A program made the translations under genes and the position numbers. Below are positions 5,213 to 37,590 of a stretch of 64,000 bases of DNA, one piece after another (within the stretch, counting starts at the first letter, position 1; every line of letters begins with the position of its first letter). Source of the stretch: a virus; IMG/VR virus record IMGVR_UViG_3300013126_000011. The stretch is one strand, 5' to 3'. A model generated the notes under the pieces. It searched no databases and was not told the origin of the DNA. It worked only from the letters and a program-made list of their open reading frames with translations.

Positions 5213-5232
5213 GTCGCTCACATTCTAGCCCT

Positions 5233-5239: not shown

Positions 5240-5267
5240 CAATAGAATTCGATTAAGGAACTTTCAA

Positions 5268-5729: not shown

Positions 5730-5734
5730 GATAA

Positions 5735-6953: not shown

Positions 6954-6956
6954 TGA

Positions 6957-14149: not shown

Positions 14150-15866
14150 AAGCCAGATAACAGATCAAGTAGCTGGCAAGTTTCTTCTGACAGAGTGGTT
14201 TGGTCTTTGTCCTGGCGGCGTTTGCCAAGATTTACTAACTGAAGCCGAGAAGCTTGATATCAAAAACAATAAAGCTGTTTATCTTACTGGCATTATGCAA
14301 AGAGCAGATGCCAAGAATGGTAATGGTCGAGTATATCCATATGAAACACTTAAGCGAGAGATGGACGTTTATCAGAAAATGATCAATGAACATCGAGCGT
14401 TAGGTGAGTGTGTTGATGGGGAAACAGAGTGCTTGACGAAGGATGGCTGGAAATCGATTGTTGACGTTAAAGAAAATGAAGAAATTTATACATTTAATGT
14501 CGACACGGAAGAAATGCAACTTCAGCCAGTCTTAATCAAGACTGAACGACTGCATCAAGGAAAAATGATTCATATTCATAACAAGAACAAGATTGATATG
14601 TTGCTCACTCCAGAGCATAAAATGATTTTGTGGGATCGATACGATAAGTCGTTTGAAATCACTGCTGGAGAGTTTGCTGAGAATTTCGAGACAGATTCGG
14701 GACTTCAACATTCATATTTTAGACGTGGCGGCATGAAGTGGAATGGAAAGCAAGCTGACACTGTTACAATTGGTTCTCATACGTATGATGCTGATCTTTG
14801 GGCAGCTTTTCTTGGTATTTATTTAGCAGAGGGTTTTACTTCTTATGACAAGAAAAATTGGGCAGAAGGTTGGAGAGTTTTTGTAGTTCAAACAAAAGAA
14901 GACACCAAAAATGAAATTCGAAAATTATTTAATGCATTATTCGCTAGCGAGAGAATTTATGAGACTACAAATAAAATTTCCAATAAGACTTCTTTTTCTG
15001 TTGTAAACAAAGACGTATTCGATTATGTAAGACCATTGGGGAAATCGTGGGAGAAATACATTCCAGAGGAAGTTAAAGAATGGGACGTTCGTAGACTTGA
15101 AATTTTGCTCGAATGGATGCTTAAGGGCGATGGCAGAAATCGACACAACAAAAAAGGCGAATTGATGAGGGAGTTGCACACAACTTCTTATCGATTAGCA
15201 AATGATGTGTCTGAAATCTTTCTGAAATTGGGTAGTGGTTCTGTAATGTCCGAGAGAACACAAAAAGATCGGATGATTGAGGGTAGGTTGATTGAAACCA
15301 AGAATTGTAGAAAATTGTACATTTCGTCTGAAAGTGTTACAAATCGTTCTTATTTTTATAAGAAATTTTTGAATATTAACGAAGTGGAATATGACGATAA
15401 TGTATACTGTGTAACGGTTGAGAACAAAACTTGGATTGCTCGTAAAAATGGTAGAATATTTATTACCCATAATTGTGATCACCCGACCTCAGAATTAGTC
15501 GAATTAAAAAATGCTTCTCATATGATCACAAGAACTTGGTGGAACGGAAAGGACGTTATGGGGACGCTTAAAGTGCTTTCCACGCCTTCCGGTAAAATTC
15601 TGGAAGCATTAGTGCGTGATGGCGTTCAGGTTGGAATCTCTTCCAGAGGTCTTGGAACGCTAACAGAAACCAGTGAAGGTTTGATGGTTGAAGATGATTT
15701 TGAGCTTGTTTGTTTTGATATTGTATCGGAACCATCAACTACCGGAGCTTTCATGAAGCCGACAATGTTGCATGAATCAAAAGTTCGTTTTAGCGACGTA
15801 TATACAAAAGCAGATCGAATTAATCGAATGATGATCAAAATTTTGAACGGAGTAAACAATAAATGA
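14133..15866 (+). CDS. prohead core protease (gp21-like), intein-containing
   Basis: GIMQRAD.KNGNGRVYP, ALGE[intein]CDHP, ASH, TPSG, GISSRGLG (catalytic Ser region), FDIVSEPST.GA. Confidence 0.93.
   Translation: MMENIKSQITDQVAGKFLLTEWFGLCPGGVCQDLLTEAEKLDIKNNKAVYLTGIMQRADAKNGNGRVYPYETLKREMDVYQKMINEHRALGECVDGETECLTKDGWKSIVDVKENEEIYTFNVDTEEMQLQPVLIKTERLHQGKMIHIHNKNKIDMLLTPEHKMILWDRYDKSFEITAGEFAENFETDSGLQHSYFRRGGMKWNGKQADTVTIGSHTYDADLWAAFLGIYLAEGFTSYDKKNWAEGWRVFVVQTKEDTKNEIRKLFNALFASERIYETTNKISNKTSFSVVNKDVFDYVRPLGKSWEKYIPEEVKEWDVRRLEILLEWMLKGDGRNRHNKKGELMRELHTTSYRLANDVSEIFLKLGSGSVMSERTQKDRMIEGRLIETKNCRKLYISSESVTNRSYFYKKFLNINEVEYDDNVYCVTVENKTWIARKNGRIFITHNCDHPTSELVELKNASHMITRTWWNGKDVMGTLKVLSTPSGKILEALVRDGVQVGISSRGLGTLTETSEGLMVEDDFELVCFDIVSEPSTTGAFMKPTMLHESKVRFSDVYTKADRINRMMIKILNGVNNK
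14409..15473 (+). mobile_element. intein (355 aa) with LAGLIDADG homing endonuclease in the prohead protease
   Basis: GE|CVDGETECLT...TPEH...FLGIYLAEG...EWMLKGDG...VYCVTV...ITHN|CDHP. Confidence 0.92.
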
Positions 15867-16171
15867 AATTAACTGAATCTCAATTAAAGCAAATTATTAG
15901 AGAGATCATCAAGGAAACTTGGAGAGATTTTCCATCTGACACTTATGCTAGCTCTGGCAACGGGCATTCTGTTAATAGAGAAGTAGATTGGCTTAAAAAT
16001 CAGCAAGATGCTAGTGCAAATGATGTTTCGTCTTGGCAAATCGTATCTTATGGAAAAAAGGTAGCCAAAGTGAATGCGTCGAACGAACGACAGGCTTTGC
16101 AAAAGTTCTTCGTGCAAAACAAGATCGATTTTAAAAATCAAAAACTATATGACGTGGTGCCAGCATCATGA
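15863..16171 (+). CDS. small protein with amphipathic tag
   Basis: MKLTESQLKQIIREIIKE. Confidence 0.7.
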   Translation: MKLTESQLKQIIREIIKETWRDFPSDTYASSGNGHSVNREVDWLKNQQDASANDVSSWQIVSYGKKVAKVNASNERQALQKFFVQNKIDFKNQKLYDVVPAS

Positions 16172-16719
16172 AATTAACTGAAGCAGTATTAAAGAAAATC
16201 ATCCTTAAAGAGATTGCCGATCTTGATCTGCCTTTTGTAAATGAAGATGAGACAGTTCCGAATCCACAAATTGAACAGTGCATTGAAACATTGACTGATA
16301 CTTTGATCGATACATATGTTTCTCAGCATTCTGATTATCCAGGTGAATATGAGCATGAATCATTATCTGACAAGATTGAGCAGATTGTTCGCTCGCATGT
16401 TCAAGAAGCAATTCGACAAGTACAAGACTTTGCAAAGCATCATGGACCAAAAGAGTTTGCATTGGAGGAAGGATTTTTGGGATTTGGAAAGAAAGATCCG
16501 GCAGATAAGCTGCTGAAAGACCCTGGATTTAGAGCCGCTTGTCACAGTTTTAGACAGTCGCCTCCGGGTGAATTGGGAATGATTAGTCGAAAGATGCGAA
16601 TTGTAGCGGCACAAGTTTTATCTGATCAGGATATTGCTTTTACATCTGATGGCGAAGACGGCTTGGACATATTGGTGACTAAAGCCTATCAGCGATATGT
16701 TCGAGAAAATTCAATCTAA
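16168..16719 (+). CDS. hypothetical protein with amphipathic tag
   Basis: MKLTEAVLKKIILKEI; first 15 nt identical to those of the 15863 gene; internal LEEGFLGFGKK. Confidence 0.7.
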   Translation: MKLTEAVLKKIILKEIADLDLPFVNEDETVPNPQIEQCIETLTDTLIDTYVSQHSDYPGEYEHESLSDKIEQIVRSHVQEAIRQVQDFAKHHGPKEFALEEGFLGFGKKDPADKLLKDPGFRAACHSFRQSPPGELGMISRKMRIVAAQVLSDQDIAFTSDGEDGLDILVTKAYQRYVRENSI

Positions 16720-17910: not shown

Positions 17911-19161
17911 ATGTCAAATTTTCTCAAAGGTGGCAAAGGCGATAAGCTTTCCAAAAAGGACGTTGATCCTGTTCAATTAAAGATGGGAATCAAGGTCGAA
18001 ATGGAGCATGCGTCCGACCCTAGAAAAGCTGCTGAAATTGCGCTCGATCACCTTTCGGAAGATCCAAAGTACTATAGCAAGTTAAAGGCTGCTGGATTGG
18101 CTGATGAACTTGATGAATCTAGTCAAGCTTCACAAGATTTAGAAAAGATTTCCATTCAATATAAACCAAATTTTTCTCCTTTTAAAACGTTAAAGTTTGT
18201 ACGTTGTGGTGGAAAAAATTTCAAGAAAAATGCTTATTATAGAAGTTCGAAAAATACCGGTCATCAACCGCCAGAAATGCATGGTTTTTATGCTTTTCCG
18301 GAAAATTATGTTGAACGATTTTTGGTTGTTAATCCTGGCGATTGTGGAGTATTTAATTATTCTGGTTTGTTGTGGACATATTTGACTGTTGCGTTACCAA
18401 AGGATGCAAAAATTTATGATAGAAAAAATGGTTGGGTATTAGTCAGTACTGATACATATGAGAAAATTCTAACAAAGTACAATGCATTAAAAAATGTTGA
18501 TGCGGCGAAAAATTATACGGATTACGGAAAGAAAACAAAGACAGATCCTTCTAGGAGAAGTGGGCATAGAATATTCAGTAAGGACAATTACGAAGTATTC
18601 ATTCCCGAGAAGAACTTTCATCGCAGATCTGAATTAAGCGAAGAGAACAATAGTCACGTCACTTTTATAGAAGCGACCAAACAAGATCTTCCAGGGCTTA
18701 TGAAAGTTGATCACGAAGTTTTTGAGTTTCCGTATTCTCAAAACACGTGGAACAAATTTTTTATCGATACAAAAAAACACGTCGTCATGAAGATGGTTGA
18801 TGGAGACAATATCTGTGGTTTTATGATTATGGACAAATATCCAGAGCATCTTCTCTTCAATAAGATGGGAATCGATAAGGCTCATCGAAGGCAAGGTCTT
18901 GGTGAACGAGCAATGTACTATGTTGATGATTATGCTCGAAAGAGTGGATATGACACAGTTCTTGGGCATGTACGACACAACAATATTGCTTCGTTGGCAA
19001 TGCACAAAAAGACTGGTTCAGACTGTCAAGAAACAGACGGAACATATCAAAACGGCGATAAAGTGATTCGGTGTGTGCGAAATCTAAAGAAAAAGAATAA
19101 TCAGCTTTCAGAAATGATTCTTGAAGCGGTTAATGTAGCGTTAAACAAATTTTCTAGGTAG
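17911..19161 (+). CDS. three-domain protein: DUF5661-like domain, unknown domain, GNAT acetyltransferase
   Basis: QLKMGIKVEMEH...IALDHLSEDPKYYSKL; C-terminal GIDKAHRRQGLG acetyl-CoA motif and HVRHNNIASLAMH. Confidence 0.75.
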   Translation: MSNFLKGGKGDKLSKKDVDPVQLKMGIKVEMEHASDPRKAAEIALDHLSEDPKYYSKLKAAGLADELDESSQASQDLEKISIQYKPNFSPFKTLKFVRCGGKNFKKNAYYRSSKNTGHQPPEMHGFYAFPENYVERFLVVNPGDCGVFNYSGLLWTYLTVALPKDAKIYDRKNGWVLVSTDTYEKILTKYNALKNVDAAKNYTDYGKKTKTDPSRRSGHRIFSKDNYEVFIPEKNFHRRSELSEENNSHVTFIEATKQDLPGLMKVDHEVFEFPYSQNTWNKFFIDTKKHVVMKMVDGDNICGFMIMDKYPEHLLFNKMGIDKAHRRQGLGERAMYYVDDYARKSGYDTVLGHVRHNNIASLAMHKKTGSDCQETDGTYQNGDKVIRCVRNLKKKNNQLSEMILEAVNVALNKFSR

Positions 19162-19451: not shown

Positions 19452-21095
19452 ATGTCTGATTTGTATAAGAGCGCAATTGCTGATGCCAAGCTTCTAAGAG
19501 AAGCTGCAATCAAGAGCGTCGAATCGGTTATTTTAGAAAAATATAGTGGAGATATTAAGCAAGCTGTTGATGAAGTGCTATCTGGTAATTCAGATGAGCT
19601 TTATGAAGCTAATGAAACAGAAGATGAAAATGTCGACAAGAAGAGCGACAAGAATCTTTTTGGACCCAATGGTGATGGTTCTCCAACAAATGATTTGCCA
19701 AATCCAGACAATCTTGGTTCCCTGACAGATACAGCCGACGTTGGAACAGATCTTTCGGCAAACTCGGATGATCCTGATTCGCAAGATCCAATGACTGCTG
19801 ATGTTATGAATTCTTCTGGAGATGCAGAAGCAAAACAAGATGCAACAGCAGAAGATGATAGCTTTCCTGATATGCCCGATCAAGCAATGGATGGTGAATC
19901 TGTTAGTGGAGCCGTTCAGACAAACGGAGAAATCGAGATCGATCTTTCCGAGCTAGAAGCAATGGCAAATTCGAAGCCAAATAAAGTACAAGATGTAAGT
20001 CAAGATACACAATCTCATGAATCGATCCTTCCAGATATGGGCGGTAGTGAGAATTCAATGGAAGAGCCGCTGAAGGAAGCAATTGATTCTGATGAAGAAG
20101 CTCCTAAAGAAGATCATAATGGTCGAAAGCTTATCATTGATGATGAAGTATTAGAACAACTTGCAGAAGCACTAATGAACGAAACAGATGATACTGGTGC
20201 TAGTGAAGCAGGTGCTTTAATTGAGCGTTATAATACCAATAATGAATATGATGATTCTGATGAAAGAGAAGAACGTCGTAGAGCCAAAGAAGAGTATGAT
20301 GAAGGTTGGGCAGATCGTGAACATGATCGACACAAAGAGGGTGACGATGAGTACGACGATCTTGACGAGTCCGTTGAAGATGAACTAAGTGCAGATAAAC
20401 CATCGAATACACAGCTTGTCGAAGACTATAAAGAGAATCTATTAGAAGATATTGACTTTGATTTTGAGGAAGTGCCTTCCGGAAATATCAATGGAAATTT
20501 TGGTGGTGTTCCAGAACCAGAAAAGCGATTTGAAAAAGATCGTATGGCTGCTGCCAAGAATCTAAAAGATAAGAAAGACGAAGAAACGAAAAGAGCGGCT
20601 TTAATGGAAGCCGTTTCAAAAGAAGTTGACAAGAAGGTTAAGAAGCTTTCAGTACGTTTGAATGCATTGGAGCAAAAGAATCAAGATTTAGTCAACGAAA
20701 ATCAGAAGCTAGCAACTGATCTGAAAAATACTAGCACAAAGCTATTGGAAACCATTACGAACAATAGCAAGCTTCACTATGCAAATCGTATTTTAAGAGA
20801 TGGCTCCTTGAATGAGCAACAGCGCAATAAGCTTGTAGAGTCTTTAAAGAAAGCGAATAGTGCAGAAGAAGCAAAGTCGATTTTTGAAACAGCAAAGAGT
20901 CTTGTTGAGTCTGTCGGAAGCACCCGAGGAAGCGTCATGACTGGAAAAGCACCGTCACTCAATGAGGTTTTAGCTAATCGAAATCGAACAAAGACCTTTA
21001 ATAGTTCGGGGCAAAATGATCGAGAAGAGGAAGGCAATCCGATTTCTTCATCAATTAGAGAGAGTTGGAAGAAAATTGCCGGAATTAAGAACTAA
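19452..21095 (+). CDS. prohead scaffolding/core protein (gp22-like position)
   Basis: Directly upstream of the major capsid gene; AIADAK.LREAA N-terminus, very acidic disordered middle with many L/I/V-x-E sites, coiled-coil C-terminus ending WKKIAGI. Confidence 0.8.
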   Translation: MSDLYKSAIADAKLLREAAIKSVESVILEKYSGDIKQAVDEVLSGNSDELYEANETEDENVDKKSDKNLFGPNGDGSPTNDLPNPDNLGSLTDTADVGTDLSANSDDPDSQDPMTADVMNSSGDAEAKQDATAEDDSFPDMPDQAMDGESVSGAVQTNGEIEIDLSELEAMANSKPNKVQDVSQDTQSHESILPDMGGSENSMEEPLKEAIDSDEEAPKEDHNGRKLIIDDEVLEQLAEALMNETDDTGASEAGALIERYNTNNEYDDSDEREERRRAKEEYDEGWADREHDRHKEGDDEYDDLDESVEDELSADKPSNTQLVEDYKENLLEDIDFDFEEVPSGNINGNFGGVPEPEKRFEKDRMAAAKNLKDKKDEETKRAALMEAVSKEVDKKVKKLSVRLNALEQKNQDLVNENQKLATDLKNTSTKLLETITNNSKLHYANRILRDGSLNEQQRNKLVESLKKANSAEEAKSIFETAKSLVESVGSTRGSVMTGKAPSLNEVLANRNRTKTFNSSGQNDREEEGNPISSSIRESWKKIAGIKN

Positions 21096-25406: not shown

Positions 25407-26329
25407 TTATGGTCTTTTAACCAATTCTTGATACGAACCATTCGTATCTTTTTGGAAGTGAATGTCTGCTGAAAGCATTTGGACATTTCCGTTATATGTA
25501 TCAGTCCCACCGACTCTTGATAGCTGTACTTGAATAATGCTCGATATCCCCATCCCGACTCCAGTCAGCGAACCTGTTCCTATAATCTCAAATAGATAAT
25601 GTTTATTTGAAGCTCCTGGCGTGGGGATGGGCATCGATATCGAACCAATGGTAAAAGCTGGAATAACTCCGTTTATCTCAATCCATCGATATGCATAATT
25701 CCAAGTCACATTTCCGGTATTTGCGTCTGAGCATTTGTAGTGAATGTGAAATTCTGCTGCACTTCCAGTCATATAACCATGAGGCAATTGCCATACAAAA
25801 TCACATCTTTGCGTTGAGCCATTTTCAAAGTCAAGCGTAGAATTTGTTGTATTGATAACTGCTGGACCAACTGATCCTGGCGGGTTAACAGCTACCGCAG
25901 ATATAACAAGATCATCCCACATAGGGATAAAATATGAACTTGATATATTCTGGAATGTTGTATGTTCATTTTCTGTTAAATGATAATGTTCACTTGTTGT
26001 TCCACCGAGAAGACCTTGCAAGGATTCATGAGAACCGGTCAATGGAAAATAGTTAATATCCGACTCAGTTTTTGTATAATAATCATTTGCGAGAGAAGAA
26101 GAAACATTATCAAGAGAACCGGATGTTAAACTATAATCAGTCCATAGTTCATCCAATGATGATGACACAGCAACGAAATCAACTTCTGCCAACGATTCTG
26201 AAAGTATAGCTACGTCTTCTAGCGCTTGTGCCATTGATTCAGATAAAGCCGGAATGTCTCCAAGTGCAAGTACTTGATCTTCCAATCCTTCTACTCTTGG
26301 GTTAAATTAACGTAAAATCCTTGGCTCAT
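25407..26329 (-). CDS. putative virion fibre or decoration protein; 5' end apparently frameshifted
   Basis: Only plausible minus-strand gene. Main ORF 25407..26285; an ATG with AAGGA Shine-Dalgarno and a late-promoter motif is at 26329, one frame off. Coiled-coil N-terminus, HESLQGL.GG...EHYHLT linker, beta-sandwich-like C-terminus. Confidence 0.65.
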
Positions 26330-26979: not shown

Positions 26980-27303
26980 GTGAAGACAAAGAACACCAAA
27001 AAAAAGAATCGTTTTGGGACCAAACTCAAGGTTGGCGATCTAGTTTGTGTAACAAAAGCTGGAGTAATATTCTTATACAGAGATCATCGTGGTTGGCTAA
27101 ATCGTCGATATGTTTTGAAAGGACCAGCCTGGGCTTCAGATGATCATATATTACCAGAGATTGTCGGAATTATCACTCAGATTATGTGGCGTGGTCCCTA
27201 TATGCTTTCGTTGTCTCTTTGGGATATCGAAAGACAAACTGAAGGTTGGTTTGAACAGCCATTTACAGAAACAGATATGGCAAGTGTTAGGTTTGTAGCA
27301 TGA
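26980..27303 (+). CDS. small hypothetical protein (SH3/KOW-like start)
   Basis: LKVGDLVCV. Confidence 0.55.
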   Translation: MKTKNTKKKNRFGTKLKVGDLVCVTKAGVIFLYRDHRGWLNRRYVLKGPAWASDDHILPEIVGIITQIMWRGPYMLSLSLWDIERQTEGWFEQPFTETDMASVRFVA

Positions 27304-27626
27304 ACAGCAGTCCACTTCCAGTTTTGAATGAAATGACGGCAGAACAGTTAAAGTCTGGTGATTTGTGTCGATGGGAAACGACTAATTGGAATTCAGATGT
27401 GAGAGTGCCTTATTCTGATACGCTTCTTTTGCTGCTTCTCGAAAATCCAAAAGTAACCAACGTTAAGCAAGATGTTCAAGAGCACCGTACACTTGACGGT
27501 CTTACAATGATGTATCCTGGCAAACGATGGGTAACTTATACTGTTGATGCTTATGTGATGGATTGGAATCGAATTTATACGTTCAATGTTGGTCCAGGCT
27601 GTACTGGATATACAGAAAAGCTATGA
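27300..27626 (+). CDS. small hypothetical protein
   Basis: ATGA-coupled; LKSGDLCRW. Confidence 0.6.
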   Translation: MNSSPLPVLNEMTAEQLKSGDLCRWETTNWNSDVRVPYSDTLLLLLLENPKVTNVKQDVQEHRTLDGLTMMYPGKRWVTYTVDAYVMDWNRIYTFNVGPGCTGYTEKL

Positions 27627-27841
27627 AATCATACAGAGACTTAGAAGTTGGAAGTATTTATAAGTTTGGCGTACAGAGTCGAGGATTATTGTGGTTGTAC
27701 TTAGGGTTTATGCCTTCGGCTGATGGTTGTGTTGCACACAATTACTTTCTTAGTATGGAAAAGTATTATGTTGATTGTTTCTCTATTAGAGAGTTAAATA
27801 ATGACATTCGGCGTGGACGAATTAGAAAGATCTTGTCATGA
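27623..27841 (+). CDS. small hypothetical protein
   Basis: ATGA-coupled ATG 27623; LEVGSIYKF. Confidence 0.55.
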   Translation: MKSYRDLEVGSIYKFGVQSRGLLWLYLGFMPSADGCVAHNYFLSMEKYYVDCFSIRELNNDIRRGRIRKILS

Positions 27842-28128
27842 ATTCCGATTTTGATAGTTTGCCGATTCTTGATAAAGAATCGTTCAAAACGGTTAAGACT
27901 GGCGAGTTATATCGACTTCAAGAGCTTGGTCCTACGATTTTTGATAGTACCACGTTTGAGCCACATAGAAAAGTATTAAAAGATCGATATTTGTTGGTTC
28001 AAGTGGTCGACGAAGTTAAGAAATTTGGTACTAACTACAGTGCTCCCTGTATAGATCTCAATTCTGGCGTAACGATAATCGTAAATTATGCGATGTCAAG
28101 CGGAAAGCTAGATTATTACAATTACTAG
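27838..28128 (+). CDS. small hypothetical protein
   Basis: ATGA-coupled; VKTGELYRL. Confidence 0.6.
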   Translation: MNSDFDSLPILDKESFKTVKTGELYRLQELGPTIFDSTTFEPHRKVLKDRYLLVQVVDEVKKFGTNYSAPCIDLNSGVTIIVNYAMSSGKLDYYNY

Positions 28129-28197: not shown

Positions 28198-29460
28198 ATG
28201 CCACCTTCTTATCTTCCACAATCGAGCTATAATCAATATATCCTGCCAGCTACAGGCACAATTGAGAATGTTGTTGATGCACTGTCTCTAGGTGTATACG
28301 CTTCTTCTACAGAATTCCTAAGTGGTGCTGCTGCACAGGTTTCATATGTCTACAATGAGCTTGGTGGTGAAATTCTCGATCAAGAATTAACTGAAAAGCA
28401 AGTTTATGAGAGCTATGAACGTGCAACTACAGAATATTCTTATATTCTCAACCTTCATCAAGGCAAAAACGTGCTTATGCAGGCTCTTGGAAGCCCAACA
28501 GCCTCATTTGATCACGAAGGAACCGTTGTTGACGGTCCAGAAGGAGCAAATTTAACCTATCCTCGTTTTGATTTTGGCTATATGCGAAGAACGGCTGAAG
28601 GATATTCGGCAGAATTATCAATGGGAGGCACACAGACTGTCTATTCAGCCTCTTTTGACGTGGAAATTGATAAACAAGACTATGATTTACAGCAAATCTT
28701 GTATTCTGCAAGTCTAAATGCTGATTGTCCTTGGAGTGGATCGTTTGCTGACGGCGCAACAAACACATTGATTCGTGTAAAACGTGTATTTTACAAGACT
28801 CCGAGAGCAACTTGGAGATATTTTGGTTATTATGGTTTGGGAGGTCTTGATACAGTTGGAGCGTTGTCAAGCTATGGTCAGTTTGCAAGTGCTTCAACGT
28901 TCCAGTTGGTTCCTGTGTGGCAAAATAAGCTTCAGGCGATGCATTATAGTGATGCTTTGTACACTCGTTTGGCTCATTATTCGTATGAGTTGAGAAACAA
29001 CAAGCTTAGAATTTTTCCAATTCCAAGAGAACCATTTGCAACAAGTAAAATGTGGTTTGAGTTCATTATTCCAAAAGGATCATTCGAGGATGGTGAACGA
29101 GAAAACGGAATGCATGGTGTTAACAACCTTGGAACGTTACCATTTGACAATCTTCCTTATGAAGCAATCAATGCAATTGGTAAGCATTGGATTCGAAGGT
29201 TCTCTCTGGCTCTCTGCAAGATGCGAATGGGATATACTCGCTCAAAGCTTCGTTCAATTCCAATTCCAGGTAATGAACTGACCCTAAATGGCGCGGAATT
29301 GTTGACTGAGGGCAAAGAAGAGGTAAAAGATCTGCGAGAAGAGCTAAAGAAAATCCTTGATGAACTAACCTATCAGAAATTAGCCGAGATGCAAGCAGAT
29401 ACGGCAGAAAAGACAATGAGCGTATTGAATAAGATTCCTCTTGGCATTTACGTTGGATAA
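28198..29460 (+). CDS. neck protein (gp13-like)
   Basis: ELGG.ILD.ELT..Q; WIRRF.LAL.K...G..RSK...IP.PG...TLNG..L..EG..E...L.EEL. Confidence 0.85.
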   Translation: MPPSYLPQSSYNQYILPATGTIENVVDALSLGVYASSTEFLSGAAAQVSYVYNELGGEILDQELTEKQVYESYERATTEYSYILNLHQGKNVLMQALGSPTASFDHEGTVVDGPEGANLTYPRFDFGYMRRTAEGYSAELSMGGTQTVYSASFDVEIDKQDYDLQQILYSASLNADCPWSGSFADGATNTLIRVKRVFYKTPRATWRYFGYYGLGGLDTVGALSSYGQFASASTFQLVPVWQNKLQAMHYSDALYTRLAHYSYELRNNKLRIFPIPREPFATSKMWFEFIIPKGSFEDGERENGMHGVNNLGTLPFDNLPYEAINAIGKHWIRRFSLALCKMRMGYTRSKLRSIPIPGNELTLNGAELLTEGKEEVKDLREELKKILDELTYQKLAEMQADTAEKTMSVLNKIPLGIYVG

Positions 29461-29463
29461 GTA

Positions 29464-30288
29464 ATGAATACACCTTCAATCAATTATGCTCAAATAGAAG
29501 CGGTCTTCAAGTATTTTCACGTTTCCGACACAAAGTTGGGTAAAAGAGATACGTTTATTTTTAATCCTCGCGTTCCAAGAACACCATATGTTCATAACAA
29601 CTATCGAATTGAGGATGATTTTACCGAAAGAGTATCTTTGGCTCCTAGAATTGTCGATGCAATGCAGGCTGGTGCTGATGGAAGATACGTTTATGCTGGT
29701 GACTTCAAGATTTTCAATGACGACGATATTAAAGCTATTGATTTGATGAAATATTGGCGAAAATGTCCATTTGCGGTTGGTGGCGTTGAAGATTTCAATA
29801 TGAGAACTTGGCTTGAAGACATTTACAAAGAAAGATTCAACGACGATTCGATTCGAGTGATTATGCGAAATGGTGATGCAGCCGTACATGGAAATGCTGG
29901 TGCAGTTGATACAGCCAACGCAAATCGCTACATTCAAGTTTATAGCGACAAGAAAGATAAGACGCTTCTCAGACTTCCAGTGAAAACTGGATTGATGGGC
30001 TATTTTGGTCCTCGTGACCTTCCAGATGATTTGCAAAAATTATGGTATGCTTGTGTACCAGACGCAGATGAAACGCATGAAAAGTGGTCTACAGACGATG
30101 TGAAGATGGTATTTGTCGGCATGCGCGATTCAGGAACAATTCACCTGTCTGAAACTGCCACAGAAATTTTGATGAAGCTTGGGTATCTCAATAAATCTGG
30201 TAAATTTACCAACTTGGCAGTGCCGACCGTTGGTTCTACAGAGAAGCTATATGAAAGTTGGCGCGATTGGAGCAAACGAGGATGGTAA
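29464..30288 (+). CDS. paralogue A of an ART-like family (putative head cargo enzyme)
   Basis: YFHVS, EDDFTERVSLAP, YVYAGD, WY.CVPDA..THEKWS shared with the 30770 and 31989 proteins. Confidence 0.7.
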   Translation: MNTPSINYAQIEAVFKYFHVSDTKLGKRDTFIFNPRVPRTPYVHNNYRIEDDFTERVSLAPRIVDAMQAGADGRYVYAGDFKIFNDDDIKAIDLMKYWRKCPFAVGGVEDFNMRTWLEDIYKERFNDDSIRVIMRNGDAAVHGNAGAVDTANANRYIQVYSDKKDKTLLRLPVKTGLMGYFGPRDLPDDLQKLWYACVPDADETHEKWSTDDVKMVFVGMRDSGTIHLSETATEILMKLGYLNKSGKFTNLAVPTVGSTEKLYESWRDWSKRGW

Positions 30289-30773
30289 GCGACAATAAAT
30301 TCACACCATTAACAACTGCTCCACCTCCTTTGTTCGTTGGTAAGAAAGAACGTGATTTTGTTGCTCATATTACACTTGAAACAGAAGAAAGAATCATTGG
30401 ACAATCGATCTTGTATTATCCAATCGACATTATGACGACAAACTATCATTCAGTATACGGTGAAGCGATAAAGAAGAACTTTTTACCTCCAATTCAAGTG
30501 TACGTGGCTATTGAATGGGAAGGCTACAAGACGGATACCGAAAAGATGGGAGTTGATCGATATGCTAGCATGAAGGTCCACTTTTTCAAACGAAGATTGA
30601 CAGAAGAAAAGGATCTTGAGGTGCAAACAGGCGATTACGTTTTGTACGGAGAACAATATTACGAAATTGTCGAATTAAATGAGCCAAGAGAACTGTTTGG
30701 TCAAGTTTTTGCCGACAAAGTAGAGATTGAAGCAAAATGCATCAGAGCTAGAGAGGGATTGTTTAAGGGATGA
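30282..30773 (+). CDS. neck/head-closure protein (gp14-like)
   Basis: IGQ.ILYY.ID.....H.VYGEA..K.F.PP; GDYVLYGE.YYEI; ATG 30282. Confidence 0.8.
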   Translation: MVSDNKFTPLTTAPPPLFVGKKERDFVAHITLETEERIIGQSILYYPIDIMTTNYHSVYGEAIKKNFLPPIQVYVAIEWEGYKTDTEKMGVDRYASMKVHFFKRRLTEEKDLEVQTGDYVLYGEQYYEIVELNEPRELFGQVFADKVEIEAKCIRAREGLFKG

Positions 30774-31999
30774 AGTTATATGAAGCTGAAAGAGAATATT
30801 GGGGCAACAAAGCTGCTGGAGTCTTATGCGTAAGCGCTCAATCTGGTAGATTTTTGGTAATGCTTCGTTCTGATGAAGTAAATGAACCTAATACTTGGGG
30901 CGTTCTATCTGGCAAGGTCGACGGCAAAGAATCATTTGAACAAGCAGCTACCAGAGAAGCAAGAGAAGAGACAGGATACACAGGCAAAGTGTCATTGACT
31001 CCAATGTATAAGTTTAAAGACAATGACTTTACGTTTCAGAACTTTTTGGGCATTGTTGACCAAGAGTTTGAACCAAAATTGAATTGGGAATCAGAGGATT
31101 CTCGTTGGCTTACATTACAACAACTAGAAAAACTACCAAGAAAGCACTTTGGATTGACTGCTCTTCTCAAAGACCAAAAGTCATATGATTTGCTCAAGAA
31201 ATATGAGAACAAGACCGCTTCAGAGCTTCAAAAAGGCTGGAAAAGTTATATCGGAGAGGCAAAGCAAACAATTATTCCAGATAGAATAACATTCGAACAA
31301 GCAGAATCAATTTTCAAGTACTTTCATCTTAGCTGGAAAAAATTAGGAGAAGATACGTTTACTTTTAGTGCGAGAATACCAAATGGTCCTGCACCTTGGG
31401 AAGATGATTTTACCAAGCGTGTTTCTTTGGGACCAACAATCAATGACTGCTTGGTTGCTGGTGCTGATGGTCCTTATGTTTACGCAGGAGATCTCAAATT
31501 TACTCCAAAAGATGATATTCCAATTGTTGATGTTGAAGAAACTTGGGACGATTGCCCATATAAGAAGTTTGCAAAGAAAGCTTATCGTGGAATAATGAGT
31601 TCAGCTGAAGCCTTTCAGTGGTTTTTAAAAGAGTTACGCAAAAACGGTGAGACTTTGTACTATTATTCGAGAAACGCTAAAGGATGGAAAAAGGTGCCAG
31701 AAAACGATATTGAGAAACAAAATAGTATCGTATATTATAGTTTGCCAATATCGCTTGAACAGAATGGTCATAATTATTGGGTATTTGGCAACGATCCATC
31801 TATTTCTTTGCCTGAAAAATACCAAAAGGCTTGGTATTCATGTGTACCAGATGCAAAGATTACTCACGAGAAGTGGAGTCCAAAAGACGTTAAATTAATG
31901 TATGTTGGAGCAATGGATAGTCGAAACAAGGATATTATTCTCACCGATCATATGAAGCAGTTCTTGATTAAAGTTGGAGTTGTTTTTAATGAAGAATAA
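30770..31999 (+). CDS. Nudix hydrolase fused to paralogue B of the ART-like family
   Basis: Nudix box G-KVDGK-E-SFEQAAT-REAREETGY; C-terminal half homologous to 29464 and 31989. Confidence 0.8.
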   Translation: MKLYEAEREYWGNKAAGVLCVSAQSGRFLVMLRSDEVNEPNTWGVLSGKVDGKESFEQAATREAREETGYTGKVSLTPMYKFKDNDFTFQNFLGIVDQEFEPKLNWESEDSRWLTLQQLEKLPRKHFGLTALLKDQKSYDLLKKYENKTASELQKGWKSYIGEAKQTIIPDRITFEQAESIFKYFHLSWKKLGEDTFTFSARIPNGPAPWEDDFTKRVSLGPTINDCLVAGADGPYVYAGDLKFTPKDDIPIVDVEETWDDCPYKKFAKKAYRGIMSSAEAFQWFLKELRKNGETLYYYSRNAKGWKKVPENDIEKQNSIVYYSLPISLEQNGHNYWVFGNDPSISLPEKYQKAWYSCVPDAKITHEKWSPKDVKLMYVGAMDSRNKDIILTDHMKQFLIKVGVVFNEE

Positions 32000-32906
32000 T
32001 CACTATTGGATTAAGTGGAGAAGTTTCATCAGCGAATCAAGTGATGTTTTTAAAGACACTCTTCGACAAATTCCAAACAAAAAACGAGAGTCGTCAAATA
32101 AGACTGTTTTGCCAAGAGAAAGGGAGACTTTTATCACTTTTAAAGATGCTGAAAGTATGTTCAGATACTTTCATTTGTCAGCAAAGAAGTTAGGTGATGA
32201 TGCTTTCACCTTTAGCGCTCAAATACCAAGATATCCTGCTCAATGGGAAGATGATTTTACAGAGAGAGTATCTTTAGCCCCAAAAATTGAAGATGCCGTT
32301 AAAGCCGGGGCGAAAGGACCATACGTTTATGCTGGTGATCTGAAAAACACGAAAAAAGACGATATCCCAATTGTTGACGTAGAAAAAACTTGGGATAATT
32401 GTCCATACAAGAAGTACGGAAATAATAGCGCTGCTGAACGCGGCAATTTCTACGATGATCAGGCGCTTGAATGGTTTGTGGATGAAGTTGCTAGACGAGG
32501 TGAACGATTATTCTATTATGGTCCATCTTCACCGTCAACCGATTGGAATGATCGCGATTGGATGGAATATGAACGAGAAAATGATCGTTCTGGTGGCATA
32601 TTGCGTCAAATGATATATGGCAATTTTCCGCTATCCCTAAATAAAATTCCGAAAGATCCAGATGATTACTTTACGCTCCAGATGGCGCCTTCCGAGCTTC
32701 CAAAGGACTACCAAGACGCTTGGTATTCCTGTGTACCAGATGCTAAGATCACACATGAAAAATGGAGTCCTCAAGATACCACATTAATGTATCTTGGTCG
32801 ACTGGTAATGCAAGGATATAATCACATTGGAGAAATTGTAATAACAAGTCACGCGAGACAATATTTAGAGAAGAACGGAATAGATTTTAGCAATTTGGAA
32901 TCATAA
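31989..32906 (+). CDS. paralogue C of the ART-like family
   Basis: YFHLS, WEDDFTERVSLAP, YVYAGDLK, WYSCVPDAKITHEKWSP; ATG 31989 after GGAG. Confidence 0.7.
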   Translation: MKNNHYWIKWRSFISESSDVFKDTLRQIPNKKRESSNKTVLPRERETFITFKDAESMFRYFHLSAKKLGDDAFTFSAQIPRYPAQWEDDFTERVSLAPKIEDAVKAGAKGPYVYAGDLKNTKKDDIPIVDVEKTWDNCPYKKYGNNSAAERGNFYDDQALEWFVDEVARRGERLFYYGPSSPSTDWNDRDWMEYERENDRSGGILRQMIYGNFPLSLNKIPKDPDDYFTLQMAPSELPKDYQDAWYSCVPDAKITHEKWSPQDTTLMYLGRLVMQGYNHIGEIVITSHARQYLEKNGIDFSNLES

Positions 32907-32907
32907 T

Positions 32908-33726
32908 ATGAGAGACATAGAGAGCAGACAAGGTTCATTTCCCTTAAATCCATCGAAATTAGAAGATATTGATGCTTCTGTGTTGGATTGGGTGAAGGAT
33001 AAGAAACTACAGACAACTACAAATGAAGGATTCAGTACTGTTCCCGTACTTTGGGTGTCTGAAGAACGTTCCCATCAAGTAAAGAATCGAAAAGAGTTAA
33101 GAGATAAGTTTGGAACAATGATCCTTCCAGCAATTGCAGTTGAACGAACAGGTTTCGAAAGAGATCTCAAAGATAAAGGCTCATATAGACGTTTTTTGAT
33201 GCCAGAAAAAGGTTATGATCCTAGAGGCGGCATGATTACAGTTGCTCATAGAATCAAGCAAGATAAGACAGCTAATTTTCAGAATGCAGACAGCATGCAG
33301 AATTATAGTCGGCTTAATTTTCCAAGAAAAAAGAACAACAAAGTAGTCTATGAATACATTACAATGCCAATGCCAATTTATGTTGTTGCTCATTACGAGA
33401 TCAACATTGCGACCGAATATCAACAACAGATGAATGATTTAGTTCAGCCGTTCGTTACTGATGGTTATGGCTTTAGTTGGATTAGCCTAGTTCGAAATGG
33501 TCATAGGTATGAAGGTTTCATCGAAGAAGGTTTTGATGCAAAAAATAATGGAGCAAATCTTGGCCAAGATCGAAGAAGATTTGAAACAACAGTCAAGCTA
33601 AAGGTGCTCGGATATGTGATTGGTGCTGGAGAAAACGAAGAAAGACCGATTGTAACCGTAAGAGAAGGTGTTACAGAGGTCAAGATTACCGGAGAACGTA
33701 CAATGCTTAAGAGCGAATTGCAATAA
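32908..33726 (+). CDS. tail completion/terminator protein (gp15-like)
   Basis: EDIDAS..., VPVLW.S.ER, LP.I.VERT, P.P.YV...Y.I.I...YQQQMNDL; between the neck and sheath genes. Confidence 0.75.
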   Translation: MRDIESRQGSFPLNPSKLEDIDASVLDWVKDKKLQTTTNEGFSTVPVLWVSEERSHQVKNRKELRDKFGTMILPAIAVERTGFERDLKDKGSYRRFLMPEKGYDPRGGMITVAHRIKQDKTANFQNADSMQNYSRLNFPRKKNNKVVYEYITMPMPIYVVAHYEINIATEYQQQMNDLVQPFVTDGYGFSWISLVRNGHRYEGFIEEGFDAKNNGANLGQDRRRFETTVKLKVLGYVIGAGENEERPIVTVREGVTEVKITGERTMLKSELQ

Positions 33727-34788
33727 GTGATGCGAAATACGTTTTATCAAAAATTATACGAATCAATGCCAAAGCACGAAGAGGTGCAGATCGGACAAGA
33801 CAATCGTTCCGATATTCGAACGCTAGTAGAATTTTTGAATATGACTATCAATTCTTCAGAACCAGTTTTTGCAAAATTTGAAGCTTTGCCAGGAGTGATT
33901 ACAAATGGTTCTGGAAGCAGTAAGTACGTATATGTCCCAGGTTCTAGAGCGAATCGTGTTCTGTTAATTGCTCATGCGGATACTGTATGGGAAGATGAAG
34001 GAGAAAGAAAGAATCGAGTTTATTACGAAAAAGGCATTTTTAAATCCAACGATCCTCAAGTTGGTTTAGGTGCAGACGACAGAGCCGGTTGTGCAATGGT
34101 ATGGTTGATGCGAAACTCTGGTCATTCTCTGCTTATTACTGGTGGAGAAGAGATTGGTGGAATCGCAAGCAACTTTATTGTCAAATCTCAACCAGATATA
34201 TATGGAGAGATTAATAAAAAGCATGCTTTTGTTGTACAATTAGATCGTCGTAATGCAAAAGATTTTAAGTGTTATGATGTAGGTTCGAAAGACTTTCGAG
34301 CACACATTACTAGTCAATTAAAAGATTATAATGAGCCAGATCGAAGTTCGTTTACCGATATTAGCTTTCTTTGCACTGATATATGTGGAGTCAATCTCTC
34401 TGTAGGTTATTACAACGAACATAGTCCTGAAGAATATCTTGTTGTATCTGAATGGCTGAATACTCTCAATCATATTCGAACTTGGTTGTCTAGAACAGAT
34501 TTGCCAACGTGTATGCAAGATAAGGAACCAGAAAAGGATTATCGAGGTAGCGAAGATCTTCAAAAGTATCGAAGTTGGCAAAAAAATAAAGCAAATACTC
34601 CACTTGATAATCGCGAGAGGCAACAGTTGCAAAATATATACAATACAGCAAAGAACAGAAATGATATCAACGCTTTTAGTGACAGTGAAATTAATAGAAT
34701 TGAAGATTTTGTAAACGACCTATATGATCGTGAATTATCAGAGCAAGATTACGAGATGTTGATGTTTCTGGTTAGTGCTGGTTTCTGA
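33727..34788 (+). CDS. M20/M28/M42-clan zinc metallopeptidase
   Basis: AHADTV, GADDRAG, GEEIGG, QLDRR and YYNEH metal-ligand motifs. Confidence 0.82.
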   Translation: MMRNTFYQKLYESMPKHEEVQIGQDNRSDIRTLVEFLNMTINSSEPVFAKFEALPGVITNGSGSSKYVYVPGSRANRVLLIAHADTVWEDEGERKNRVYYEKGIFKSNDPQVGLGADDRAGCAMVWLMRNSGHSLLITGGEEIGGIASNFIVKSQPDIYGEINKKHAFVVQLDRRNAKDFKCYDVGSKDFRAHITSQLKDYNEPDRSSFTDISFLCTDICGVNLSVGYYNEHSPEEYLVVSEWLNTLNHIRTWLSRTDLPTCMQDKEPEKDYRGSEDLQKYRSWQKNKANTPLDNRERQQLQNIYNTAKNRNDINAFSDSEINRIEDFVNDLYDRELSEQDYEMLMFLVSAGF

Positions 34789-34869: not shown

Positions 34870-37590
34870 ATGAGCGTTTCTAAATACAAATTCGTTAGTC
34901 CTGGCGTGCAAGTTGCTGAAATTGACAACTCGCAGATTCCAAATGAGCCAGTAGGCTATGGTCCAGTAATCATTGGACGTTCCGAGCGTGGTCCTGCTCG
35001 ACCAACAACTGTCAATTCTTTTTCTGACTTCGTTGAAGTCTTTGGGAATCCAATTGCCGGCGGTAAGGGTGGTGATGTGTGGCGCGACGGAAACTATACT
35101 GCTCCAACCTATGCTGCATATGCTGCTCAAGCTTGGCTAAAGAGTGCTTCGCCTGCAACGTTCGTTCGTTTGCTTGGCGAAGAGCATCCTGATGCGACAG
35201 AAGATGGTCTTGCTGGTTGGGAAGCTGATTCTGCTTATGGACTCTTTATTGGCAGCACTGGTTCTGGTGATGATTATGGGAAGGCAGTACTAAGCGCAGT
35301 ATTTTATCTGAATTCTGGTTCTAGTATCGCTCTATTGAGTGGTTCCGCACCAGCTACAGATGCTTTCGTACTTTCAAATGCTGGTAGTTGTGGTTTCCAG
35401 ATTGGTATTGCTGGTCCAAACTCATTTGAGTACACAAGCTCGTTCAACTTTGATAAGAATTCAGAACGTTTTATTCGAAAGGTATTCAACACTAATCCTA
35501 CACTATCGAATACAGAAATTACTCAGACTGATGCAGTTAAGCCTTATTGGTTGGGCGAGACATTTGAGAAGGCACTGTTTGCAAATCTAGATCTTGACAC
35601 CAATAACACTGCTGTTGACAAACAGTTTGCAGTGTTGACAAAGTTTTCTGATGGTGCTAGCTGGAGTGGTGCAAATTATCGTTTCTCGTCGAACCCTGCG
35701 CGTACTGGTTGGATTTTCTCTCAGGATCTAAGTACCAATACTGGTTCTTACGATTCAGAACTTATGACAAAGTTGTTCCGCTTAGTATCTCTAGAGACTG
35801 GTGAGTGGGATCAGAAGAATCTCAAGATTTCGATTTCTGACGTAAAGGCTCCTGTAAGCGATTTCAATACTTACGGCACTTTCACTGTAGAGATTCGAAA
35901 GGCAAACGATTCTGATAGCAAACCACAAGTTGTTGAACGTTTTACTGGATGCACACTAGATCCAGCTTCAGAAGATTATGTGGCTCGCAAGATTGGTGAT
36001 ATGTACCAAGTTTGGGATTACACTGACAATCGTTATCGTTGGTACGGAAACTATACGAATAAGTCAAAGTTTGTTCGTGTCGAAATGAATCCCGACGTAG
36101 AAGCTGGTACTACAGATACACAACTTCTACCTTTCGGTTTCTATGGACCAGACGTACCAATTGCAACTTCTTTCACAAGCGGTTCTGCAATTACTGGCAG
36201 CAAGTTCATTGAAAACGTGGATATCGTCGGCGCTCCGGCTGATATGTACTGCACTTTCGAATATCCAACACTAAGTCTTCGCGAATATTCGACTCTTGGT
36301 GAGCTAAGTTCTCCAAAGCGTGCATATTGGGGCGTTACAACCGGTCGTGTTACAAACTATGTTCGTTTCGATGAATCATATGCTGATATGGTTCGCGTTC
36401 GAACGTTCGATGTTGCCGATATGGTTCCATCGTTTACGTTCACGCTAGATGATATTTGCTGGACAGGCAGAAATAACGTAAATGCAATGTACAGTGGTAG
36501 CTCTCGTGTTGCTGGAACTTCGATTACAGCAGTTGGTGGCTCTTACAAGAGCGTATTAAGCGCTGAGTTCAATAAGTTTACTCTACCAATGTTCGGTGGA
36601 TTCGATGGATTAGATATCACCGAGAAAGAACCTTTCCGCAATGAGCTTTTAGAAGGAAAGAGTGAAACAGACAGTTACGCTTACAACACAATCAAACGCG
36701 CAATCAATACTGTTTCAGATCCAGAGACAGTAGAATACAACTTAATGGCCATTCCAGGCGTATACAACTCTGGATTGGTTGCTCATGCTATTGGTGTGTG
36801 CGAGAATCGTGCTGATGCTCTTTATATCGCTGATGTTGATAGTGGTTATCGAGCAAATACAGAAAATACTGATGATTTCGAGCTTCGTCAGGGAACAGTC
36901 GCTAGTGCTGTAGATTACGTAAAAGATACTTTACAGTTGAATACCAGCTATGGTTGCTGCTACTATCCTTGGCTGCAAACCAAAGATACTATCACAAATA
37001 GTCTAGTTTGGATGCCACCTTCTGTTCTAGCGCTTGGAACATTTGCTTCAAGCGAAAAGAAGACAGAAATTTGGTTTGCTCCTGCCGGTTTTAATCGTGG
37101 TGGTCTAAATGCTGGTGCTGGTGGTCTGCCAGTTGTGAATATTGCTGATCGTCTAAACAAAGATGATCGCGATAAGCTATACGAGGCAAACATCAACCCA
37201 ATTGGTATTTTCCCGGCAGAAGGTATCATGATTCTTGGACAGAAAACATTGCAAGTAACTCGTTCTGCAACAGATCGAATCAATGTACGTCGATTGATGC
37301 TATATGTCAAGAAAGAAATTTCAAAGATGGCTTCAACGGTACTGTTCGATCCAAACGTTAAGGTGACTTGGAATCGCTTTGTTGGTCAAGCCGAGCCGTT
37401 CTTGAACAGCGTTCGAAGCCGTTACGGATTGAGCGGTTACACGCTGATTCTTGATGAAACTACTACGACACCTGATTTGGTTGATCGCAATATTGTATAC
37501 GCAAAGATAATCTTGATTCCAACCAAGACTATTGAGCATATCGCAATCGACTTTGTTATTTCGAATACTGGCGCTTCTTTCCAAGACTAA
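34870..37590 (+). CDS. tail sheath protein (gp18-like)
   Basis: FVSPGVQVAEIDNS, WFAPAGFNRG, RDKLY...INPI, GQKTLQ, DRINVRRL. Confidence 0.96.
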   Translation: MSVSKYKFVSPGVQVAEIDNSQIPNEPVGYGPVIIGRSERGPARPTTVNSFSDFVEVFGNPIAGGKGGDVWRDGNYTAPTYAAYAAQAWLKSASPATFVRLLGEEHPDATEDGLAGWEADSAYGLFIGSTGSGDDYGKAVLSAVFYLNSGSSIALLSGSAPATDAFVLSNAGSCGFQIGIAGPNSFEYTSSFNFDKNSERFIRKVFNTNPTLSNTEITQTDAVKPYWLGETFEKALFANLDLDTNNTAVDKQFAVLTKFSDGASWSGANYRFSSNPARTGWIFSQDLSTNTGSYDSELMTKLFRLVSLETGEWDQKNLKISISDVKAPVSDFNTYGTFTVEIRKANDSDSKPQVVERFTGCTLDPASEDYVARKIGDMYQVWDYTDNRYRWYGNYTNKSKFVRVEMNPDVEAGTTDTQLLPFGFYGPDVPIATSFTSGSAITGSKFIENVDIVGAPADMYCTFEYPTLSLREYSTLGELSSPKRAYWGVTTGRVTNYVRFDESYADMVRVRTFDVADMVPSFTFTLDDICWTGRNNVNAMYSGSSRVAGTSITAVGGSYKSVLSAEFNKFTLPMFGGFDGLDITEKEPFRNELLEGKSETDSYAYNTIKRAINTVSDPETVEYNLMAIPGVYNSGLVAHAIGVCENRADALYIADVDSGYRANTENTDDFELRQGTVASAVDYVKDTLQLNTSYGCCYYPWLQTKDTITNSLVWMPPSVLALGTFASSEKKTEIWFAPAGFNRGGLNAGAGGLPVVNIADRLNKDDRDKLYEANINPIGIFPAEGIMILGQKTLQVTRSATDRINVRRLMLYVKKEISKMASTVLFDPNVKVTWNRFVGQAEPFLNSVRSRYGLSGYTLILDETTTTPDLVDRNIVYAKIILIPTKTIEHIAIDFVISNTGASFQD

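Follow-up and report, generated by a model that had tools for sequence, protein, structure and literature searches.

The window analysed here is a 64,000-nucleotide (nt) stretch of the IMG/VR virus record IMGVR_UViG_3300013126_000011, from an uncultured T4-like lake phage that is a strongly divergent myovirus. Between positions 29464 and 32906, interleaved with genes for neck proteins, it carries three paralogous genes, here called A, B and C, whose products share a conserved domain interrupted by a variable region and bear a short tryptophan-containing tag outside that domain; B is additionally fused to a Nudix hydrolase domain. The shared domain appears to define an undescribed enzyme family that is probably ADP-ribosyltransferase (ART)-like and probably capsid cargo, within a known strategy. 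The genes and their features, with lengths in amino acids (aa), are as follows.

29464-30288, + strand: paralogue A, a solo domain of 274 aa
Key residues of A: H19 (29518-29520), E50-D51, R56, S58 (29635-29637), Y75/Y77, D200 and E206 (30079-30081)
29773-30018, + strand: variable region of A, residues 104-185, modelled as a helix plus a small three-stranded sheet
30244-30285, + strand: C-terminal tail of A, KLYESWRDWSKRGW, with L-x-E followed by W-R-x-W (LYESWRDW)
30770-31999, + strand: paralogue B, 409 aa, in which a linker tag joins an N-terminal Nudix domain to the family domain; its start overlaps the stop codon of a gp14-like gene
30809-31144, + strand: Nudix domain of B, residues 14-125 (PF00293, E 6e-15; phrog_1198, E 5.5e-22)
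31217-31267, + strand: interdomain linker of B, SELQKGWKSYIGEAKQ, with W-K-x-Y followed by I-G-E (WKSYIGE), a candidate prohead-protease site
31286-31996, + strand: family domain of B, residues 173-409, with H186, E211-D212, R217, S219, D361 and E367
31562-31807, + strand: variable region of B
31989-32906, + strand: paralogue C, 305 aa from ATG 31989 (310 aa from TTG 31974), overlapping the end of B by 11 nt
Key residues of C: H62, E87-D88, R93, S95, D251 and E257
31989-32036, + strand: N-terminal tag of C, MKNNHYWIKWRSFISE, containing WRSFISE
32409-32696, + strand: variable region of C

BLASTP alignment gave 37% identity over 251 aa between A and B (E 7e-43) and 50% over 267 aa between B and C (E 2e-83), and the motifs by which a preliminary description of the locus had recognised the paralogues, namely YFH(V/L)S, EDDFT.RVSL.P, AGA.G.YVYAGD.K, DDI...CP(F/Y) and LP...Q..WY.CVPDA..THEKWS, are all present in all three copies. 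A hidden Markov model (HMM) scan of all six frames found no copy in the window besides A, B and C, and hhalign comparison of the family with the three-module protein at 17911-19161 returned nothing significant, leaving no fourth copy there. The segment from CP(F/Y) to LP, which sits between beta3 and beta5 of the predicted fold, measures 82 (A), 82 (B) and 96 aa (C), and the flanking core is 45-70% identical among the copies. These inserts had been described as about 80-100 aa long and largely unrelated; the lengths hold, as does the lack of relationship between A and B (11% identity, z -0.4 against shuffles), whereas A and C are marginally similar (20%, z 3.3) and B and C clearly homologous (29%, z 11). 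The spacing from the beta2 motif to VPDA spans 71-232 aa across relatives (median 105 aa), with A, B and C (139, 139 and 153 aa) among the longest, and the variable region at the beta3-beta5 site is therefore a property of the whole family.

Relatives were sought with an exhaustive HMMER scan of 1.84 billion representatives, which recovered 168 metagenomic proteins at E<=1e-3 and 96 at E<=1e-10, mostly 180-280 aa in length and all unnamed. No Pfam, NCBIfam or PADLOC model matched the domain in A or C, and B matched solely Nudix models; PHROGs yielded one marginal match only (C to phrog_25542, E 0.0092). Searches by tblastn with A, and with a relative from a jumbo-like contig, found no match among 50,697 phage records, and a word-indexed protein search returned only the window's own proteins. 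Profile searches of PDB sequences gave chance matches only (a Gamak virus protein and PTEN), the ESM Atlas gave no usable match and a poor model of A, and a scan of GTDB genomes with the one strict pattern EDDFT[EK]R[IV]S revealed no relative. Across 113 aligned members, E50, D51 and R56 (numbering of A) are invariant and H19, P38, T54, S58, Y77, C197, V198, P199, D200, E206, W208 and G219 are at least 90% conserved. Such conserved polar residues, intact in all three copies, are typical of an enzyme, and on this pattern the domain appears enzyme-like.

The domain also occurs in other architectures. The 508-aa relative P0003 contains two complete copies in tandem in one polypeptide, P0032 and P0043 have a C-terminal GNAT fusion, and P0104 and P0159 are fused to 2H/LigT. 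Two relatives are giant polyvalent proteins, i.e. polypeptides with several unrelated effector domains: P0137 (2629 aa) combines ART-PolyVal, radical SAM and Nudix with two copies of the family domain, separated by some 1,500 residues and with the Nudix domain directly ahead of the second, and P0074 (3111 aa) combines a LigD phosphoesterase (LigD-PE), NT5C, a DNA ligase and the family domain. Within the window only B fits this description, and minimally, with two domains. Thirty-five other loci were examined and each carries a single gene copy; triplication is specific to this phage. At one of those loci, L034, an open reading frame (ORF) of 504 aa (62-1573) may hold two tandem domains, and its size is similar to that of P0003.

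The Nudix domain of B was assigned on two grounds, a box of the form G-x5-E-x7-R-E-U-x-E-E-x-G-U and a PF00293 score above the gathering cutoff. A regular-expression search located the complete box (GKVDGKESFEQAATREAREETGY) at 30911-30979, as the preliminary description had it, and the PF00293 score of 55.8 bits against a cutoff of 21.1 places the domain in the Nudix superfamily; the best NCBIfam matches were far under their cutoffs. It is 41.5% identical over 85% of its length to the Nudix protein of Burkholderia phage BcepSauron. Nudix is fused N-terminally in B and C-terminally in the relative P0054, and in P0137 it (1850-1947) precedes a family domain (2018-2171). In the jumbo-like contigs L002/L004/L033, L003 and L035 the distance between a Nudix gene and the single family gene is 30 bp to 2 kb, and in L001 a Nudix protein 42% identical to that of B is encoded 7.7 kb from the family gene. 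Because it recurs as fusions at either terminus, within a polyvalent protein and as neighbouring genes, the link to Nudix is recurrent and independent of orientation, and these separate architectures and neighbourhoods support a functional link. The contigs with small neighbouring Nudix genes (L002 9507-9923, L003 12627-13091 and L035 5005-5481, all on the - strand) have a split DNA polymerase and reach 260 kb. A calcineurin-like phosphoesterase is also found near the family gene in L002.

The structure of A was predicted with AlphaFold2 from the 113-sequence alignment, resulting in a model with a predicted local distance difference test (pLDDT) score of 89.3 and a predicted TM-score (pTM) of 0.85; an alignment of only 3 sequences gave pLDDT 34. 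Only residues 131-160, 171-180 and the final ~25 are of low confidence, with residues 140-142 below 50 and the 131-160 blocks averaging 53-80. The model was compared with 48,161 representative chains using VIA-align. Many unrelated proteins match only a small helix-plus-sheet subdomain within the variable region (residues 112-174); the roughly ten matches that span the core are all ART-fold, and none is a phosphoesterase or nuclease. The nearest solved structures are TreX (8S2M), pertussis toxin S1 (7SKK/7SKY), Scabin (5EWK), Arr (9IAF), EcPltA (4Z9D), LT-A (1LTB), Tpt1 (7YW2), BC2332 (2AUA) and CopC (7XN4), of which BC2332 (2.7) and CopC (2.4) were added by a repeat structural search. BC2332-like proteins form an ADP-ribosylation family in SCOP (PMC3000352). 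Foldseek against BFVD returned uncharacterised phage proteins only, among them those of Klebsiella phage Eowyn, Erwinia phage Ea35-70 and Pseudomonas phages Noxifer and SL2, with low TM-scores because the insert distorts the superposition.

In the TreX alignment, model residue 14 pairs with chain residue 10, so that H19 falls on R15, the beta1 catalytic residue, and S58 on S54; the TreX residues are taken from PMC11606950. H19 and S58 are 39 residues apart, as are R15 and S54, and E206 comes about 100 residues later than E100/E102 of TreX, roughly the length of the extra beta2-beta5 sequence of A. All three of H19, S58 and E206 are in predicted strands and in ART order. By the same alignment offsets, H19 would also fall on Arg9 in pertussis S1, Arg7 in LT and Arg77 in Scabin. 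On the model, then, we assign the family domain an ART-type fold with clearly better than even confidence. Two other identities considered for the domain were discarded: for a 2H phosphoesterase, the second H-x-[ST] is not conserved, and for a RES domain the R/E/S order is wrong.

The genes around A, B and C all lie on one strand in the tightly coupled order gp13-like, A, gp14-like, B, C, gp15-like, M28-like peptidase and tail sheath. The sheath (34870-37590) is at best ~28-31% identical to its counterparts in deposited phages, these best matches being Microcystis phage Mel-JY01 and an uncultured phage of 484 kb.

28198-29460, + strand: gp13-like neck/head-completion protein, ending 3 nt before A (phrog_211 head-tail adaptor, E 5e-7)
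30282-30773, + strand: gp14-like neck protein, whose ATG at 30282 overlaps the stop codon of A; the longest ORF begins at TTG 30258
32908-33726, + strand: gp15-like tail-sheath stabiliser/neck protein (PF16724, E 7.7e-4, below the Pfam cutoff)
33727-34788, + strand: M28-like peptidase, just upstream of the sheath gene (phrog_4191 peptidase, E 3e-32; PF04389, E 4.5e-4)

By tblastn, the gp13-like protein is 33.5% identical to the protein in the gp13 position of Mel-JY01 and 29.5% identical to a 'putative head completion protein' of a Flavobacterium phage. The gp14-like protein is 25% identical (E 2e-9) to its Mel-JY01 positional counterpart, and the gp15-like protein matches the syntenic protein of Mel-JY01; the interleaving with neck genes noted earlier is thereby substantiated. 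A, B and C are translationally coupled to these late neck genes. The T4 late promoter TATAAATA shows no enrichment and does not occur on the + strand around the A-C block, and scans for sigma-70 promoters and terminators within the block gave background levels, so the accessory genes should be co-expressed with the neck genes.

Mel-JY01 has contiguous gp13-, gp14- and gp15-like genes, then a 315-nt ORF, then the sheath gene; no family member was found across its 190 kb, and that ORF is all that its peptidase slot holds, with no coding sequence of comparable size. The M28-like peptidase is thus another accessory gene inserted into the neck-tail module. A closer relative than Mel-JY01, L005 (IMGVR_UViG_3300035412_000027, 2174-7063), has a GIY-YIG-like gene between gp13 (43% identical) and gp14 (50%), after which come gp15 (41%), another GIY-YIG-like gene and a family member. 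The family is accordingly tied to the neck module in two related phages, in different slots, and since the insertions differ between this phage, Mel-JY01 and L005, the comparison of gene orders suggests that neck-gene junctions act as insertion hot spots. In L005 the GIY-YIG-like genes occupy the slots held here by A and the M28-like peptidase.

Could the paralogues simply be non-enzymatic structural or decoration proteins of the neck? Their position among the gp13-, gp14- and gp15-like genes is the only point in favour, and set against it are the same neck genes without the family in Mel-JY01, the different slot of the family gene in L005, the polar or charged nature of the invariant residues and the fusion of relatives to enzymes. 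We regard this as very improbable, and identification as a structural neck protein was rejected.

Elsewhere near the module, four successive small ORFs (72-108 aa) occupy 26980-28128 just upstream of the gp13-like gene, each containing (K/E)-x-G-(D/E/S)-(L/I)-(Y/C/V), and these may be small SH3/KOW-like paralogues. The 292-aa ORF at 25407-26285 (- strand) is the sole sizeable minus-strand ORF in an otherwise all-plus window.

The W-type tag reported in each of the three proteins was confirmed: each copy contains a single W-[RK]-x-[WYF], next to an (L/I)-x-E site and always outside the conserved domain, and all three copies have the pattern, which was chosen post hoc, in 0.34% of shuffles. The tail of A resembles the scaffold C-terminus IRESWKKI (the scaffold gene, 19452-21095, ends SSSIRESWKKIAGIKN), and P0004, the closest relative of A, keeps the same tail (FESWRNW). 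This cargo protein may copy the C-terminal, possibly coat-binding, peptide of the scaffold. The linker of B resembles leaders of relatives, e.g. LVENWKNYIIQE, and cleavage at its candidate site would separate the Nudix from the family domain. Amphipathic leaders ending in aliphatic-x-E, of the types MKxLLENWRxFLxE or MKxxxxLxxIIKE, are present in 51 of the 101 relatives with an N-terminal extension, as opposed to 11.4 +/- 3.2 in shuffles, and resemble the starts of this phage's head-operon proteins at 13928, 15863 and 16168. Near-identical leaders (MKLAELILKKMIRE, MKLTESQLKQIIREIIKE, MKLTEAVLKKIILKE) were seen on small proteins near the prohead protease gene (13928-14149, 15863-16171, 16168-16719 and 5268-5570). 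The C-terminal part of the M28-like peptidase contains YRSWQKN, reminiscent of the W-type tag.

Phage T4 offers a precedent, in which a 10-aa capsid-targeting sequence (CTS) suffices for packaging and is removed by gp21, and in which Alt, an ART carried in the head, is shortened at either end (PMC9026906). Among phages, ARTs and Nudix proteins are over-represented in myoviruses, often adjoin morphogenesis genes and are often predicted to be packaged (PMC9503650), and polyvalent proteins are thought to be injected (PMC5512222). CTS-like leaders in about half of the testable relatives favour head packaging, and by analogy with T4 we lean modestly towards packaging of A, B and C in the head. Otherwise, the proteins would be made late and left unpackaged, and would act in the producing cell's cytoplasm as T4 ModA/ModB do, or on components of the virion, the tags being due to chance or to some other interaction. 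The tag motifs are indeed short, lie at three different positions and were defined post hoc, and relatives in jumbo-like contigs adjoin DNA polymerase genes rather than structural genes. Since, however, the leader enrichment in relatives is ~12 standard deviations above shuffles, the leaders resemble the head-operon proteins of this phage, the domain is found in polyvalent proteins, the related phage L005 also keeps its family gene in the neck module and the tail of A resembles the scaffold C-terminus, we consider this alternative unlikely, if a serious one.

We tentatively combine these observations into a single account, held with somewhat less than even confidence, of ART-like enzymes using nicotinamide adenine dinucleotide (NAD+), loaded by their tags as head cargo and partnered by Nudix. 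A, B and C would be three active paralogues of an unnamed virus-associated enzyme domain of ~180-230 aa. The conserved core is most likely an ART-type split beta-sheet, with His19 ending beta1 (Y-F-H-L-S), Ser58 in beta2 (R-V-S-L-A, then helix), Glu206 at the start of beta5 (T-x-E-x-W) and an additional Glu50-Asp51...Arg56 cluster. The domains probably bind NAD+, either passing ADP-ribose on to targets in the host or consuming NAD+ in another way. The variable region would take the position of the PN and ARTT substrate-recognition loops of ART toxins, the ARTT loop having this function in those toxins (PMC11606950); from this position, the three copies probably differ in target, and it is structurally reasonable, by analogy, that the variable region sets it. 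By analogy with T4 CTS and gp21, it is probably through the W/(L/I)-x-E peptides that the proteins enter the prohead; trimming would then free the Nudix of B from its partner, and the proteins would be ejected into the host with the DNA. The Nudix partner probably hydrolyses ADP-ribose, NAD+, or an NAD-derived product or signal.

Several results weigh against this account. Foldseek of the A model against the PDB gave no match at E<=0.001 (best E 0.5), no Pfam ART family matched even at E<=10 over the 113 members, PDB profile searches produced no link to ARTs, and an hhalign comparison of the family with an ART-PolyVal alignment paired only YFHLS and YHGTS, at a probability of 0.2%. Neither sequence nor profile homology to a known ART family was thus found, and the residue equivalences are taken from alignment ranges only. 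Classical ARTs follow the patterns H-Y-E (PARP/DT), R-S-E (T4 Alt/Mod) or H-H-h, and the putative triad H-S-E, as read from the model, matches none of them. Where the R-S-E clade, to which cholera- and pertussis-like toxins also belong, has Arg in beta1, S-T-S in beta2 and (Q/E)-x-E in beta5, the family has a near-invariant His, R-[IV]-S-L-[AG] and T-x-E-x-W with a single Glu. In comparison with the H-Y-[EDQ] clade (which also includes DarT and ART-PolyVal/HYD2, and has its beta1 His in H-x-[ST]), H-L-S and the Glu are present and the beta2 position appears to be Ser (Cys in a few members), not Tyr, with Y75/Y77 in the next strand. E50-D51-R56 and D200 are without a classical ART counterpart and could mark metal- or phosphate-dependent chemistry. 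On the delivery side, the tags are short and their pattern was defined after looking, and the T4 ARTs ModA and ModB are not packaged, so a late-operon position alone is no proof of delivery.

These points leave room for an enzyme that is not an NAD+-dependent transferase, one whose E50, D51, R56, D200 and E206 would serve metal- or phosphate-dependent reactions of nucleotides or nucleic-acid ends in concert with Nudix, for instance RNA/DNA end healing or degradation of a nucleotide immune signal, with the ART-like topology coincidental or very distant. Its partners would be apt, as end-processing enzymes accompany the domain (2H/LigT in P0104/P0159; LigD 3'-phosphoesterase, NT5C and DNA ligase in P0074), links to a Nudix domain or gene recur and a calcineurin-like phosphoesterase is near the L002 family gene; the strictly invariant residues are E50, D51 and R56 rather than the putative ART triad, the structural matches are weak and no profile matches ARTs. 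Polyvalent proteins, however, mix unrelated activities, which makes partners weak guides (PMC5512222), the ~10 core-spanning structural matches are all ART-fold, and the H-x-S strand, the S-L-A strand plus helix and the strand-start Glu follow the ART order. We judge this possibility doubtful on balance.

A Tpt1/KptA- or Arr-type ART-like enzyme with H-H-h logic, acting on a phosphate or small molecule and not on proteins, was also considered, for example one carrying out NAD+-dependent removal of the 2'-phosphate from repaired tRNA while Nudix clears ADP-ribose cyclic phosphate, as RNA-repair cargo. The invariant Arg56 could bind phosphate, and relatives are fused to 2H/LigT or lie in a ligase-containing polyvalent protein. 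Yet Tpt1 is the weakest among the ART matches, an N-terminal winged-helix RNA-binding lobe is not evident, what we take to be the catalytic Arg-His-Arg-Arg tetrad of Tpt1 is not recognisable in the family, and three paralogues with divergent inserts better fit several targets than one housekeeping repair step; we think this quite improbable.

The preferred account of NAD+-using, tag-loaded ART-like enzymes agrees in part with the preliminary description, which had envisaged a virion-delivered ADP-ribosylation toolkit with swappable inserts and a Nudix partner. The resemblance to the ART fold, then judged by eye, gained from the alignment offsets that put His19 on the beta1 catalytic position, and did not extend to a Foldseek match in the PDB or to an ART by sequence or profile. 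Occurrence in polyvalent proteins and the CTS-like leaders fit virion delivery, and the recurrent Nudix link supports a functional partnership; the homology of the B and C inserts goes against swapped modules. That interpretation is therefore partly supported overall, and it is NAD+ use, packaging and target-setting by the insert that we infer.

A bolder version, which we offer as speculation and consider unlikely as a whole, would make the family an unrecognised ART clade with a hybrid H-S-E site plus the invariant Glu-Asp...Arg, conferring a new phage-ART chemistry, for instance one that uses NAD+ to modify a phosphorylated nucleic-acid end or a nucleotide of immune signalling. Loaded by its tags and released by protease, it would be capsid cargo in which the subdomain at the ARTT position retargets each paralogue, and the phage would inject three differently aimed enzymes plus a Nudix.

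If the family is ART, ~170 clusters, so far from viral or metagenomic sequence only, would join the injected host-takeover and anti-defence enzymes; the family has an unusual catalytic constellation and is not represented in Pfam, PHROGs, NCBIfam, PADLOC or the PDB. The triplication would be a compact natural experiment on ART-type retargeting, with conserved cores, diverging subdomains at the ARTT position and a recurrent Nudix link, and tags at N-terminal, internal and C-terminal positions would carry the T4 capsid-targeting paradigm over to a remote lineage of phages.

Among known systems, the ART superfamily (SCOP d.166.1), whose split beta-sheet core has the strand order 4-5-2/1-3-6, provides the only structures that align over the whole conserved core, and in the predicted fold the elements come in the same order, with a polar residue, in ARTs a catalytic one, ending beta1, a Ser in beta2, a helix after it, and a Glu starting beta5. 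On the model, the family joins a beta1 His, as in the H-Y-E and H-H-h clades, to a beta2 Ser, as in R-S-E, and differs from classical ARTs in the extra invariant E-D...R cluster, in the VPDA Asp and in the ~70-230 aa, partly variable, between beta2 and the VPDA motif just before beta5. Like T4 Alt and the CTS cargo proteins IPI, IPII and IPIII, the paralogues are encoded by late genes beside morphogenesis genes in a T4-like myovirus, have short terminal peptides with candidate (L/I)-x-E sites and are predicted to act as enzymes ejected with the DNA. They share no sequence similarity with Alt/Mod and have a putative triad other than R-S-E, and in contrast to the T4 CTS their tags hold W-[RK]-x-aromatic and lie at three different positions. 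The Nudix domain of B, with its intact box, has its closest relatives among the jumbo-phage hydrolases (phrog_1198; BcepSauron/BcepSaruman MutT/NUDIX), although those are annotated as stand-alone hydrolases and B is fused to the family domain. Polyvalent proteins (PMC5512222) include two giant ones with the family domain, and B is a two-domain Nudix fusion; the family nevertheless lies outside the Pfam-registered polyvalent domains (ART-PolyVal, LPDs and others), and here it forms three separate small genes, not one giant protein. Finally, a survey of the viral NAD+-ADP-ribose network (PMC9503650) predicts co-packaged myovirus ARTs and Nudix proteins, as proposed here; with packaged ART plus Nudix in myoviruses already predicted, the advance would be the new family and mechanism rather than the principle.

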